In this document: piece by piece, positions 10,273 through 15,222 of the stretch
Numbering within the stretch: position 1 is the first letter of the stretch
Layout of the letters: every line of letters begins with the position of its first letter
Assembly: GCA_963777155.1 (NCBI GenBank)
Contig: CAVZPM010000037.1
Location: forward strand, 35,336 to 99,335
DNA length: 64,000 bases
Direction: 5' to 3'
Source of the DNA: Candidatus Bathyarchaeota archaeon
GTDB lineage: Archaea > Thermoproteota > Bathyarchaeia > Bathyarchaeales > Bathycorpusculaceae
Notes under the pieces: generated by a model
Databases searched by the model: none
What the model was told of the DNA's origin: nothing
The model's input: only the letters and a program-made list of their open reading frames with translations
Translations under genes and position numbers: made by a program

Positions 10273-11624
10273 TTAAATTGGTTGCCCTAATCCCAAAGCA
10301 ATAAATTTCATTTTCTTTCCGAAGACTTGAGGGTCATAAATTCTTCTGCCATCAATGAGAACTGGCTGCTTCATGTTTTTGATGAAGTTTTGCGGTGTTA
10401 GCGTTTTGAATTCGGGCCATTCTGTGACGACTATGCAGCAGTCCGCTTCTTTAAGGCAATCAATAGTTGAGCTGGCGTATTGGATTTTGTCTTTGAATAT
10501 GGTTTGAGCAGTTGGCATCGCTACTGGATCGTATGCTGTAACGTTTGCCCCTTCCTTAAGGAGCTGATTTATGATAGGGATGACTCGGGCTTCTCTCATG
10601 TCATCAGTGTCTGGTTTGAAAGCCAAACCCAATATCGCAATTCTCTTTCCTTCAAGAGCAGCCCAGTTGCTGCTTGCAAAATTTAACTGCTTTTAGGGGC
10701 TGCTTTTTATTCACAGCCTCAGTGGCATCCAAGAGCTCAGGGGTGTATCCGAAGGCTTTGGAGCAGGCAATCAACGCTTTTACGTCTTTAGGGAAACAGG
10801 AGCCTCCGTAACCTAAACCTGCATCAAGAAAAAGCGAGCCAATCCGCCTGTCAAGTCCCATGGCGGCTGCAACGACTTTGACGTCGGCTCCGGGGATTTT
10901 TTCACAAATGTTGGCAATGGTGTTTATGAAGCTGATTTTGGTTGCAAGCATGGCGTTGCTAGCGTACTTTATGAGTTCCGCCGTAGACAATGTTGTTCTG
11001 ATAATCGGTGGAACATGCCCAATATAGAAATCCCTGTAGAGGTCTTCTACCTTATCGCCTGATTGCTTATCAAATGAACCCACAACCACCCGGTCAGCAT
11101 TAACGGTATCCTGGAAAGCGGAGCCTTGCCGCAGAAACTCTGGGTTCATACAGAGCCCAAAATCGACACCGCATTTCTTCCTTGATTCTCGTCTCAAGTA
11201 CAGGTTTAACAACGTCCTGGGTTGTTCCCGGCACAACCGTGCTCTTAATTATTGTAACGTGATAGGTGTCTTTTTGTTTAAGCGCCTTGCCAATGTTGCT
11301 CGCGGCGGATTCAATGTATTGAAGGTCGATGCTGCCGTCTGGCCTGCTAGGAGTACCCACGGCAACAAAAGTCAAATCCGTCTCCCCAACTACACGGTCA
11401 GTTTGACCAACCACACCTTTGAGATTGCCTTTCGCAAGGCTTTCGGAAAGTTTTTCCTGCAAACCTGGCTCATGGAAAGGAGGAATGCCCTGATTGATTT
11501 TTTCTATCTTGGCTTCATCAACATCGCAGGCTAAAACATTGTAGCCTTTGCTTGCAAAACCCACAGCGGTGCATAAACCAACATACCCCGTGCCTATGAC
11601 AGATATTTTAGGTTGTTTCTTCAA
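10273..11624 (-). CDS. ugd: UDP-glucose/GDP-mannose 6-dehydrogenase, two frameshifts
   Basis: VIGTGYVG, IIKSTV, NPEFLRQG, GYGGSCFPKD, GLAFKPDTDDMRE, IDGRR motifs across three ORFs. Confidence 0.9.
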
Positions 11625-11828
11625 AGCCAAACCCGCACTCAAACGATAATTTGGATTAGTTATAATATTAAATAAAACTATCTTTTCCCAAGAGTCTTCC
11701 GCGTTTGTTTGCATTATAGAGAATTTATCTGTCAGCTTTGAACAGAAAAGGTCATTCATATTTGCACCTAAAAAAAGGCAACCACAAACTATTAGTCTAT
11801 CACTAATAAAACTAGTTATAGACTACTT

Positions 11829-12825
11829 ATGTCAGACATTATTTCTGTGAAAAACCTCGTTGAAGTTTACTCTGATGGCAACAAAGCCGTTGATGACATA
11901 TCCTTTAGCGTGAAGGAGGGCGGTTTTTTCGGTTTTTTGGGACCAAACGGCGCAGGAAAAAGCACCACCATCAAGATTTTGACTACGCTTCTTCGGAAAA
12001 CCTCAGGGTCAGTTACAGTCGGAGGGCATGATGTTGCTAGTGGAGCCTCTGAAATACGCAAAATAATCGGTGTCCAAAGCCAAGAAACAACCGTTGACGG
12101 CGATCTAACGGGCAGAGAAAACCTTTTTCTGCAGGGTCATTTCCAACAAATGGAAAGCGTTAGACTCAAGAGAAGTGTAAATGAGCTTTTGCAGCTTGTA
12201 GGTCTCGAATCAGCCGCTGATAAACGGGCAAAAAATTATTCGGGCGGAATGAAAAAACGGTTAGATTTGGCATCAGCACTTGTTCATGAACCAAAAATAC
12301 TTTTCTTAGATGAACCAACGACGGGTCTTAGATCCGCAGTCTCGAACTGCCATATGGAGTTATTTGCAAAAACTAAACAAAGAAGAAGGCAAGACAATAT
12401 TTCTTACTACACAGTATTTGGAAGAAGCAGATAAATTATGCGACACTTTAGCGATTATTGATTTCGGCAAAATAGTGGCTAATGGATCACCCCAAGAGCT
12501 AAAACGGCAAGTCGGAGCTGATTCTATAAGAATTGGGTTAGAAAACTGCGAACGCGACCGAGGCAACGCAAAAAGTCTCATAAAAAGTATGGTTGGCGTT
12601 AAAGAAATTCTGGATTCTGAGGAATGCATCAATGTCTATGCTGAAAACGCTTCGTCATTAATTGCTGATATTGTTCGTGCCTTAGACAGCACTGACATAA
12701 GGCTTACTTCTGTTACTTTCTCTCAACCATCATTAGACGACGTATTTGTGAAACAAACAGGCAGAACAATACGGTCAGAGGCACTTGTTAAAGCCCCAAG
12801 CGCCATGTTTGGCCAGCGGAGTTAA
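11829..12825 (+). CDS. ABC transporter ATP-binding subunit (DrrA-like), frameshift near 12330
   Basis: GPNGAGKST, YSGGMKKRL, FLDEPTTGL(DP), PSLDDVF. Confidence 0.9.
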
Positions 12826-12831
12826 ACAAAA

Positions 12832-13608
12832 ATGACTTTGCTTTCAGACACTGGATTCATATTTGTAAGATACCTGAAAAAACTTGTTCGTAATCCTATT
12901 CTTCTGTTCTTTTCCCTTGTCCAACCCATAATCTTCTTGCTACTCTTCACACAATTATTAACGAAGACTTTCTAATTTTCCAGGGATACTACCACCTGGC
13001 GTAAGTTATCTACAATTTGCAACAGCAGGTATTCTTCTACAAAATGCATTCGGTAGTGCTCTTGCAGTCAGGAAACTCGATTGTGGCTGATATAGACTCA
13101 GGGTTCCTACAGAAAATGCTTGTTACACCGGTGAGACGATCTGCTATTTTACTGGGTCGGTTAACAAGTGACGCTTTTAGGGTAGCAGTCCAATCGGCTA
13201 TTATTCTGGGTTTAGCTTATGCCTTGGGAGCCTATGTTACCACCGGAATCATTGGAATTCTGCTGATCTTCTTTACAATTGCTTTCTTTGGGCTGGCATG
13301 GTCTGGAATTTCATTAGCGTATAGGTATGAAAACAAGAAGTTCCGAGACAGTATTTGCAATAGGCGGATTCCTCACATTCCCACTACTATTCTTAAGCTC
13401 AGCTTTGTTTCCAACTAGTTTTCTGCCGACTTGGGTACAAGATGTGTCGAATTTTAACCCGATAAGCTACGCAGTGAATGCTATACGAGCTTTCATGATT
13501 AATGGTTATGACTGGGGCACGATACTTCCTGCTTGGGGTGTAATCGCGTTAGTTGCCGTTGTGACTTTAAGCGCTACATTGTACCAATTCCGAAAAGTAG
13601 TTAGCTAA
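12832..13608 (+). CDS. ABC-2 type permease (DrrB-like), frameshifted
   Basis: ATG 12832 MTLLSDTGFIF...; DSGFLQKMLVTPVRRSAILLGR; PLLFLSSALFP...NPISYAVNAIR. Confidence 0.85.
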
Positions 13609-13633
13609 AGACAAAGGCGGACATCAATAGCAT

Positions 13634-13660
13634 TGGTACAATAGTGGGATTCGAACCCTC
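13634..13660 (-). other. tRNA-like 3' fragment (T-arm plus ACCA)
   Basis: Minus strand GAGGGTTCGAATCCCACTATTGTACCA; no complete cloverleaf visible. Confidence 0.4.
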
Positions 13661-13702
13661 GCAAAGTGGAGATATCACCCGCGATTCCCTTTTTTCTATG
13701 AA

Positions 13703-13756
13703 GATTTTACATTTACTCTCTTATTCTATTCAGTTCCAGAGCCTCAGCAAACCCCT
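13703..13756 (-). repeat. Structured dispersed repeat, left-arm copy in inverted orientation
   Basis: Minus strand AGGGGTTTGCTGAGGCTCTGGAA...AAGAGAGTAAA matches 22083 and 54251. Confidence 0.7.
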
Positions 13757-13911
13757 ACGGGATTGAGTGTGACACAGGAATTGATGAATAAGGTTTGAGA
13801 CGAATCCTATGACTCTTTTTTTATATTAGTTTAGTTGGATCCTTATCGGGCTCGAGGATTCACTCGTAAAGCCCCTTTTCTTTGAGCATATTTTGCTTAA
13901 GGTGAAAACGG

Positions 13912-14067
13912 ATGGAATCCGAAATCGTAAATTGGCCACATTTCGGCAAAATTACCTCAAAAACGAAACAGAACGTCCAAGAATAACGTACCCCTGAGGG
14001 CGACAAGCGCAAGGGGAAAAGCCAGAGCTGCTTCTGCTACAAATGCGGCTGCACGTTTTCAGAATGA
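13912..14067 (+). pseudogene. Decayed Zn-ribbon microprotein
   Basis: AAGGTGA SD; MESEIVNWPHFGK...QE*RTPEGDKRKGKSQSCFCYKCGCTFSE*; internal stop; WPHFG looks like an eroded CPHCG. Confidence 0.4.
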
Positions 14068-14105
14068 CTAGCAAAACATAGCTGACTAATCGAGTTTTCC
14101 GATTG

Positions 14106-14327
14106 TTATTTTCCCATAACTTTTCTAGCGGCAATTTCAATGTCTTTCGCTTTAATGGTTTTTCTTCCAGAGTGCATAGAATAATCAAGTGCCTCTTTAG
14201 CAATTTTAGTGCCAATCTCATCCAGAACTCTTTCAAGTTCCTTCGCTGCTGCTTCACTTACCCTCTCAGCTCCAGCTTTCTTACATAATCTATGCATTGG
14301 AGCCACAGCTATTTCTAATTCGTTCAT
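14106..14327 (-). CDS. Archaeal histone (HMf/HTk family), no tail
   Basis: IAVAPMHRLCKKAGAERVSEAA...A-x-x-Y-x-x-HSGRKTIKAKDIEIA histone-fold signature. Confidence 0.95.
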   Translation of the reverse strand: MNELEIAVAPMHRLCKKAGAERVSEAAAKELERVLDEIGTKIAKEALDYSMHSGRKTIKAKDIEIAARKVMGK

Positions 14328-14452
14328 ATAGACTTACTTCACAGCCTCTTTCTATTTTTAAGGCAATATTAAGCTTTGTTATCTTTTTCCGCCAATCTTT
14401 AGCAAATTATAAATACAAATTACTGCATACATTAAATCCCGAGGTTATTTCA

Positions 14453-14509
14453 ATGGCGAAGAAACCAGCTAAAAAAGAAGTAAAAAAAGCCCCAGCAAAG
14501 AAAAAGTAA
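14453..14509 (+). CDS. 18-aa Lys-rich micropeptide MAKKPAKKEVKKAPAKKK
   Basis: TTATAAATA box 14407-14415, GAGGT SD 14441-14445, ATG 14453, TAA 14509, T-tract after 14538. Confidence 0.65.
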   Translation: MAKKPAKKEVKKAPAKKK

Positions 14510-14712
14510 ACCCTCGGGATAGGAATGTTTACCTCACTATTTTTTCTTTTTGTCAATGCACAACTTAAAGAATTGTTATGGTTTAGGGCATATGGTAAGT
14601 GTGCAAAGAAAGTTCAGGTTTGATGTTGCACTAGTTTTCAGACGCACTCAACGTGAGCGCACTATTCTCATAGCGGAATAATGTTTTTCTTCCTGACTAT
14701 TAGAATGTTGAA

Positions 14713-15006
14713 TTGCTATCCATGTTGTCTGAAGATACGAAATTAAGAGACTTGCGAGAGAGAATTAGAGACGTTACCATAAACGAAAGAAACGGTTTAC
14801 TGATAATCATTATGGGCGTGTTTCTCTTTTGTTTAGGTTTAGTTTTCATTGCTATGGTGAACAACAGCCTCGTATCTGTTGGAGGAATCTTCAGTTCAGC
14901 ACTAGGCATTTTTTCGACTTTGTTTGGATTCTATGTGGTAGTGCATTATGCTCATCAATACAACAACCTGCAAAAAGAATTGGAGCTTGCGCTATCAGGG
15001 TTCTAA
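14713..15006 (+). CDS. Hypothetical 2-TM membrane protein
   Basis: 97-aa ORF with two hydrophobic helices. Confidence 0.65.
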   Translation: MLSMLSEDTKLRDLRERIRDVTINERNGLLIIIMGVFLFCLGLVFIAMVNNSLVSVGGIFSSALGIFSTLFGFYVVVHYAHQYNNLQKELELALSGF

Positions 15007-15098
15007 ATAGAACGATGGGATTTAAACTTGGGACAAGTAGCGAAGTCTCCCGCACAACCCCATTTTTGCCATTCAACTAGTCTGTTCCAAAAATTTCT

Positions 15099-15169
15099 AA
15101 AGAGATAAAATTTACAATGCCTCTTTGATTTTAGCTTCAACAGTTAAATTTATCCAGAGTCTACTCAGC
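15099..15169 (+). repeat. Structured dispersed repeat, right-hand part
   Basis: AAAGAG...CTCTTTGATTTTAGCTTCAA...CCAGAGTCTACTCAGC. Confidence 0.7.
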
Positions 15170-15222
15170 TCTGGTCTTAAACATAAATTGAAACTAAAAA
15201 AAGGGAGGGAGGTTGTTTTTTT

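Follow-up and report, generated by a model that had tools for sequence, protein, structure and literature searches.

An oligolysine micro-gene of 18 codons paired divergently with a tail-less histone variant in Bathyarchaeia

The chromatin of archaea is thought to be composed of tail-less histones and a few folded nucleoid proteins. The linker histone H1, which to our knowledge is absent from Archaea, is constructed from a winged-helix globular domain (GH1) and a tail of about 100 residues. Protamines and sperm nuclear basic proteins are Arg-rich, eukaryotic and mostly much longer than 18 residues, while the tiny basic ribosomal proteins eL41, bS22, bL37 and Thx, which are 20-35 residues long and rich in Arg and aromatic residues, are bound in rRNA. 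Lys-rich tails with PAKKA/AKKA repeats are carried by HupB/Hlp and other H1-like bacterial proteins. According to the accessible part of the report on Mycobacterium smegmatis Ku, its C-terminus likewise bears Lys-rich PAKKA/AKKA repeats, which modulate DNA binding (PMC3553676), and tailed archaeal histones have been described, in the portion of the source available to us, from Heimdallarchaeota LC_3, Huberarchaea and Bathyarchaeota B23 (PMC6136690).

The locus presented here, located in a stretch of 64,000 nucleotides that is termed the window below, couples a tail-less histone gene with a micro-gene (sORF) whose predicted product is the peptide MAKKPAKKEVKKAPAKKK, in which nine Lys, four Ala and two Pro are found among 18 residues and the motif PAKK occurs twice. 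The peptide resembles H1 in its Lys/Ala/Pro low complexity and in its KK pairs every four residues, both being presumably disordered polycations, and its gene is linked to that of a histone. This is no more than a likeness; an 18-residue free peptide, known here from sequence alone, possesses no fold, has no room for a GH1 and displays no detectable homology to H1. Protamines are similarly small and highly basic, and they neutralise and compact DNA and work with histones or replace them, but they bear no sequence relation to the peptide. The resemblance to eL41, bS22, bL37 and Thx lies in the tiny size, the extreme basicity, the strong expression signals and the tendency to be missed by gene callers, while the peptide differs from them in being free of Arg and aromatic residues and in the lack of a match to PF05162 at the sORF, the latter in a weak search. 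As far as the accessible text on Ku goes, the bacterial Lys-rich tails share the PAKK-type repeat chemistry, but they are fused to a folded DNA-binding protein (PMC3553676), whereas the sORF stands alone as a gene, with promoter and terminator of its own. The tailed archaeal histones come from the same archaeal class and embody the same idea of Lys-bearing extensions on hypernucleosomes; in the part of the source at hand, in contrast, the tail lies within the histone polypeptide, and the histone of the window is tail-less with 73 residues (PMC6136690).

Layout and coding character of the micro-gene

The histone gene, recognized from the list of open reading frames and by Pfam, lies on the minus strand (14106-14327) and ends in a stop codon at 14106-14108. 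Its start codon is separated from that of the sORF by a divergent intergenic region of 125 nt (14328-14452), in which two core promoters stand back to back about 46 nt apart. On the minus strand, the TATA-like box of the histone, TTAAAAATA (14353-14361), lies only 26-34 nt upstream of the ATG, and because of this short distance the histone mRNA is probably leaderless or nearly so; the 60 nt upstream are conserved in both histone paralogues, as the DNA matches reach query position 301. The sORF, which consists of 18 codons followed by TAA and represents what is called family 1 here, is encoded on the plus strand at 14453-14509 (ATG at 14453, TAA at 14507-14509). Its promoter TAGCAAATTATAAATACAAA (14400-14419, plus strand) combines a BRE-like element, AGCAAA, with the TATA box TTATAAATA (14407-14415), and its 16-nt core is nearly invariant across the alignments A1, A2 and A5; from the usual archaeal distance between TATA box and transcription start, the transcript is predicted to begin near 14437. 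A Shine-Dalgarno sequence, GAGGT (14441-14445, plus strand), is placed 7 nt upstream of the ATG, and its GAGG is invariant in 19/19 modules of alignment A1 and 25/25 of A2. The T-tract TTTTTTCTTTTT (14540-14551, plus strand), an archaeal-type terminator of the sORF transcript, is the point at which homology to other genomes stops, and forms the right end of a two-gene cassette of about 450 bp (14106-14551) that is the unit of conservation, duplication and relocation.

The initial annotation had described a mini-gene 125 bp from the histone with promoter box, Shine-Dalgarno sequence, ATG, stop codon and T-tract, all of which were recovered at their places, and translation of the reading frame bore out the composition given there for the product (nine Lys among 18 residues, two PAKK motifs). 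Its 'divergent promoter' is correct in so far as the promoters diverge within the 125-nt gap, but these are two separate core promoters without a single common element, since the histone has a TATA-like box of its own on the opposite strand. The description of the gene as too short for standard gene callers was likewise confirmed, as these callers missed it.

A scan of the window's genome (2.29 Mb in 39 contigs, GC 42.9%) yielded 101,769 start-to-stop reading frames of 10-40 codons, among which 757 reached a Lys plus Arg content of at least 40%. Only three of these K+R-rich frames are preceded by both an SD-like and a TATA-like element, and two of the three are the sORF and its paralogue on contig C35. 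Within this genome the 16-nt promoter word GCAAATTWTAAATAC is restricted to the same two sites, whose common sequence also extends into the flanks of the word (TTAGCAAATTWTAAATACAAA).

The family-1 set comprises 48 copies of the window's type from 45 genomes of one genus. The reading frame is intact in all 48, with 17-19 codons in one register, and among the 24 unique frames of 18 codons the variable columns at codon positions 1, 2 and 3 number 1/17, 4/17 and 10/17, respectively. Codon 2 is found as GCA, GCC, GCG and GCT, the Lys codons swap solely between AAA and AAG, and 11 of the unique frames start with ATG, the other 13 with GTG. The corresponding counts in family 2, to which the C35 paralogue belongs, are 5/15, 4/15 and 12/15. 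Each of the three indel events inside the family-1 frame measures 3 nt, whereas a multiple of three was encountered in only one of 15 events in the flanks (1 nt in eleven, 2 nt in two, 3 nt in one and 4 nt in one). Mean column entropy is lowest in the frame (0.246), against 0.508 for promoter plus leader and 0.59 for the 3' part. The examination of synonymous sites that had been proposed with the initial annotation therefore found variation at its height in third positions, with Lys codons confined to AAA and AAG, and the gene claimed there is a real one, given 48 intact copies, three-periodic variation and in-frame indels. These comparisons establish the sORF as a genuine micro-gene with its own promoter and terminator, whose predicted product is an oligolysine of 17-19 residues with a net charge of about +8 and no hydrophobic core.

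Several ordinary genes are split into overlapping ORFs of different frame, namely those for UDP-glucose dehydrogenase and for the ATPase and permease of an ABC transporter (window positions 10652-11759 and 11829-13608), as well as pyrD on C35 (L031:5113-6031). Such splits represent assembly indel errors or pseudogenes; the frame of the sORF is still confirmed by its 47 other copies.

An inverted repeat brackets the reading frame, as seen in the minimum free energy fold and in the alignment. Its 5' arm CCCGAGG (14438-14444, plus strand) takes in the Shine-Dalgarno sequence, and its 3' arm CCTCGGG (14512-14518, plus strand) begins 2 nt past the stop codon. The words CCGAGG and CCTCGG are complementary and nearly invariant in family 1, and a helix between them would enclose the entire frame, which hints that it could mask the Shine-Dalgarno sequence. 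Across 47 distinct sequences, pairing is possible in 98.9% of the cells, a value that is equalled by the shuffle control, and the variants are solely of the G-U type without compensatory change. The fold energy is no better than that of shuffled sequences in either family (z -0.91 in family 1, +0.85 in family 2). A permissive Rfam scan of 13600-15200 returned matches at chance level only, none of them near the gathering score, and tRNA genes were not found in the window. A structured small RNA was discarded as a candidate in view of the missing Rfam match, the unexceptional fold energy and the lack of two-sided change in the 6-bp helix. A leader peptide or attenuator was likewise rejected, the T-tract following the frame and the downstream genes being different from place to place (pyrD, a ferritin-like gene, a molybdenum oxidoreductase gene and 26 groups of family-1 flanks). 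Because the variation is of the coding type, the fold is no better than shuffled and Rfam gives no match, the sORF appears to be under selection as a peptide and looks translated.

Two metatranscriptome runs contained a small share of the stretch; their contigs map to the histone gene and to 14670-14809, the sORF being matched by none. Searches of Pfam and NCBIfam with longer natural variants of the peptide (20-26 residues) gave a single chance match (E 0.12), and a profile built from 33 peptides had no match among the PDB sequences. A published description of such a gene was not found in full-text searches, while supplementary catalogues of small ORFs could list it.

The two-gene cassette and its histone variant

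Of 120 genomes of the genus, 45 contain family 1, at 51 places altogether, and a histone gene lies within 1.5 kb at 46 of these places (43 of the 48 examined in detail, together with three further places). Among the five misses, two are located at contig ends and three have no histone within that distance (L051, L191 and L198). The arrangement is mostly divergent with a spacing of 123-129 nt; at least six loci hold an extra 200-290 nt or so between the genes, which in five of six is one conserved insertion of about 290 nt, and at least three have the histone flipped to tandem order. In one genome (G048) four cassettes occur, whose common part extends over only about 450 bp at 83-92% identity. 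When the cassette was masked, the 48 loci fell into 26 groups of flanks, and the window's own flanks were absent from all other genomes examined, apart from one partial match. The homology is bounded by the histone stop codon on one side and the T-tract of the sORF on the other. Compared in this way, the DNA shows that histone and sORF constitute a divergent cassette of some 450 bp, which within one genus has been passed on, copied and relocated as one piece. The initial annotation had regarded linkage to histone genes in relatives as decisive for its interpretation: the linkage is kept within this genus through inversion, insertion, duplication and relocation, but among close Bathyarchaeia relatives a Lys-rich sORF is near the histone at only 10 of 66 histone loci. 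The joint copying and moving of the two genes suggests a common role in packing DNA, while gene neighbourhood is circumstantial evidence, and a 450-bp unit could travel together through proximity alone.

The insertion of about 290 nt between the two genes, which was noticed in at least five genomes (L033:1139-1553, L036, L052, L058, L194), contains no convincing ORF and may represent either a small RNA or a mobile element of miniature type. Sequences resembling the 3' ends of tRNAs, without an ARAGORN call, are found directly beside four cassettes just past the sORF terminator (L033, L037, L052, L189), and called genes for tRNA-Leu(tag), tRNA-Thr(ggt) or tRNA-Ala lie less than 1.5 kb from the cassette at five loci (L041, L043, L058, L188, L194); cassettes could therefore sit at integration hot spots. 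In the IMG/VR viral contigs, neither a relative of the histone nor the sORF pattern was detected.

The histone of the window matches PF00808 (CBFD_NFYB_HMF) over residues 7-66 with a score of 44.8 bits (E 1.6e-11), where 21.4 is the cut-off, and PF00125 with an E value of 6.8e-07. By profile it is an HMf-type archaeal histone, and its 73 residues fit the length of about 65-75 residues that leaves no N- or C-terminal tail; the longer database forms of its close homologues arise from upstream read-through of the 5' region and not from tails. In a quick tree, 39 of the 41 sORF-linked histones fell into one cluster, weakly supported (SH-aLRT 83), which is nested among the unlinked histones of the genus, and the window histone appears to be a member of this sORF-linked variant paralogue. 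The linked histones are more variable than the unlinked ones. In the column of the putative tetramerisation His, Tyr is found in 16 of 41 linked histones, whereas His stands in every unlinked sequence that is not gapped at this column (40 sequences; one more is gapped); the Gly two residues further on is replaced by R or K in 17 of 41 linked sequences and is invariant in 40 unlinked ones. Both putative interface residues, in the columns of His49 and Asp59, are retained in the window histone; we take these positions, in the numbering of HMfB, to be the dimer-dimer interface needed for hypernucleosomes, and the mapping of the columns to HMfB is our assumption.

In the initial annotation the peptide had been conceived as a histone 'tail in trans' or as a minimal linker/protamine-like peptide. 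A fused Lys-tailed histone was found neither among the 11 longest of the best 120 of 1382 homologue matches nor in 17 of 18 long open frames taken from 150 listed histone matches in a class sample of 201 genomes, the 18th frame being without a histone match. As the forms examined included no such fusion, 'tail in trans' would hold only as an analogy. Covalent continuity, which marks a histone tail, is also lacking, the peptide being encoded apart from the histone, on the opposite strand, by a gene equipped with promoter, Shine-Dalgarno sequence, stop codon and terminator of its own.

Relatives of the micro-gene

The family-2 paralogue in the same genome, VAKAPKKVDKKVKKKK, is located on contig C35 at 12175-12315 (L031:6176-6316, minus strand) behind the same promoter word. 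It stands between an ECF-S-like gene and pyrD, upstream of the latter and with no histone nearby, and this neighbourhood recurs at 11 of 11 loci of the genus examined. In other genera a ferritin-like gene follows the relatives of the micro-gene (seven loci), and in another family a molybdopterin oxidoreductase gene is the neighbour; promoter, Shine-Dalgarno sequence and type of terminator are the same in the family-2 paralogue and in the relatives from other families.

R1, a sequence-only model of the 150-nt module, gave matches in 105 of 120 genomes of the genus and in 58 of 151 genomes sampled from the order. Broken down by taxonomic family, the order sample contained matches in 27/35 genomes of f1, 14/25 of f6, 10/35 of f7 and 5/34 of f11, the weak ones among them being doubtful. 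At 28 of 30 fetched loci a Lys-rich ORF was present just 3' of an SD-like motif; in the usual case this motif is TGAGGT and precedes a GTG start by about 7 nt. Most of the 28 have a box of the type TTTTAAATA upstream and a C-rich stretch followed by a T-tract downstream; VAKAAKGKKKKGGKKK, VPKKAKGKKKKGGKK and VSKSPAGKKKKISKKKTK are examples of the peptides. A micro-gene family conserved across one Bathyarchaeia order is thereby demonstrated, of which the window copy represents a derived paralogue. The pairing with the histone is not ancestral, because the family-2 locus is syntenic across the genus without a histone and other genera have other neighbours. The peptide family is, on these comparisons, older and wider than its pairing with the histone, and the supposition that the peptide is a histone accessory by origin was not sustained, as neither the paralogue at pyrD nor the distant relatives have a histone as neighbour.

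With the broader model R2, a sample of the class gave matches in 35 of 151 genomes and a sample of the phylum in 40 of 151. Stand-alone Lys-rich micro-ORFs, such as MAKKKAAKKTTKKKTTKKKK and MKKEKKEEKKEEKKK, were present at 14 of 21 fetched class loci and at 10 of 16 fetched phylum loci, and two phylum loci proved to be mere tails of longer ORFs. At such distances a low-complexity match cannot prove homology, and these micro-ORFs are candidate relatives whose homology is unproven.

Two micro-ORFs in other classes, MKKEKKEEKKEEKKK, which is apparently leaderless behind a TATA box, and MAAKKKAKKKTTKKTTKKC, are each conserved between two species (L252 and L254, from two genomes of one genus; L263 and L265; L266), their kinship with the Bathyarchaeia family being unproven. 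A third family of Lys-rich small ORFs was observed in the window's genome. Its representative MAKKPKTAEEQKKKTAYYSKKEKKAKEVKK, 30 residues in length, is encoded on contig C1 at 118456-118548 (L226:1957-2049, plus strand) with a TATA-like box of its own and the Shine-Dalgarno sequence TTGAGGA. DNA matches to it were found in 27 of 61 genomes of relatives, all within the genus, and intact ORFs of 29-32 residues at 11 of 25 fetched loci; the peptide belongs to no Pfam or NCBIfam family, and its exact sequence is contained in the ESM Atlas without a family name.

Candidate roles and biological meaning

We are inclined, tentatively and with a confidence that stays short of even, to regard the peptide as a free oligolysine polycation that would act on DNA or chromatin together with this histone variant. 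The proposal is made because the gene pair persists and because the PAKK and KK-x-x-KK chemistry is that of H1 tails and of bacterial Lys-rich DNA-binding tails. As an abundant soluble polycation, the peptide would bind to DNA by means of its KK-x-x-KK spacing, much as AKKP/PAKK repeats of the H1 type do. Where the paired histone variant wraps or links DNA, the peptide would neutralise phosphate charge and thereby tune compaction. It would serve as a free linker or counter-ion component and not as a docked 'tail'; from the ancestral paralogue, which is unlinked, the cell would obtain the same polycation for binding nucleic acids in general. For a peptide of such charge, RNA, ribosomes, polyphosphate and acidic lipids would be expected to be targets as good as DNA.

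This last property leads to the main rival, in which the peptide is a general RNA- or ribosome-associated polycation that fills pockets of rRNA like eL41, bS22 and Thx, its place beside the histone being that of a hitch-hiking duplicate. The ancestral paralogue and the distant relatives do not stand beside histones, the family is tiny, order-wide and equipped with a strong consensus promoter and Shine-Dalgarno sequence, and similar stand-alone Lys-rich micro-ORFs occur in other classes of the phylum, all of which would be in keeping with such a function. The known tiny ribosomal proteins, however, typically contain Arg and aromatic residues, and the peptide has neither. In a six-frame search of the window's genome, PF05162 (eL41) gave two weak matches elsewhere (E 0.29 and 0.54) and none at either sORF, although the cut-off was reached nowhere and the control genomes, too, stayed below it; the duplication and relocation of the cassette along with the histone would, moreover, need another cause. 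We consider this explanation rather unlikely. It is improbable that the peptide binds a different polyanion or surface, for which polyphosphate, acidic proteins and acidic lipids of the membrane would be candidates. Such binding agrees with the high net positive charge and with the Cys that stands by the polybasic run in distant variants from other families and classes (VSRCAKGK..., MSGCAKK..., ...KKKKKAC, ...KKKC), which recalls lipid-anchored polybasic motifs; the homology of these forms is unproven, though, the window's family is free of Cys, and no genes for membranes or polyphosphate are found in the context.

A low probability is also given to a function that resides in the act of translation or in the RNA, where the Shine-Dalgarno sequence would be sequestered by the 3' anti-SD helix and the run of Lys codons would sense translation capacity, for example lysyl-tRNA or its modification. 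The inverted repeat around the frame, with nearly all cells able to pair and variants that are G-U compatible, and the invariance of several Lys third positions speak in its favour. Against it, neither the fold energy nor the pairing exceeds the shuffled controls, compensatory change is absent, and the exchange of A, V and E at four codons only, together with the in-frame indels, argues for selection on the peptide; nor is there an obvious regulated target, because the transcript has its own terminator and the genes downstream are variable. The disfavoured view that there is no gene at all, the ORF being due to chance in A-rich intergenic DNA or to conserved non-coding sequence that serves the histone locus as promoter or terminator, could draw on the very short length, the low complexity and the want of a database family. 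It is made highly improbable by a frame that is kept in every family-1 copy despite homopolymer runs, always with an ATG or GTG start and a stop codon, by the three-periodic variation, the in-frame indels and the conservation of the ORF above its flanks, and by a paralogue of the same architecture at an unrelated locus.

The idea of a substitute for polyamines was tried and dropped. Family f17 contains both speE (8/14) and matches to the sORF model (9/14), and since it carries both, polyamine synthesis and the sORF are not complementary. As a separate observation, the window's genome, which is 90.6% complete, yielded neither spermidine synthase (PF01564) nor AdoMet decarboxylase (PF02675); PF01564 was found in none of 15 sampled genomes of family f1 and in none of those sampled from f6, f7, f10 and f2, while it is clear in other Bathyarchaeia families.

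Returning to the preferred chromatin reading, its most far-reaching form would be a separate chromatin component, in which an 18-residue oligolysine linker or counter-ion peptide and a histone variant are united in a mobile 450-bp 'mini-chromatin' cassette, the peptide being one of a hidden class of oligolysine micro-genes of at most 20 codons that is spread through the Thermoproteota and missed by all gene callers; this is possible, if on the doubtful side. If true, a ribosomally made free oligolysine travelling with a histone variant would be a new kind of chromatin component, and would provide a testable prokaryotic analogue of charge neutralisation by linkers and tails, with a bearing on the origin of histone tails and of H1. 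Whatever its function may be, a gene of 18 codons is conserved across an order of uncultured archaea, and its module, in which promoter, Shine-Dalgarno sequence, ORF and terminator are accommodated within 150 nt, is a compact natural expression unit. At least three families of Lys-rich micro-genes in a single genome are invisible to standard annotation, which indicates that much of the smallest proteome is being missed.
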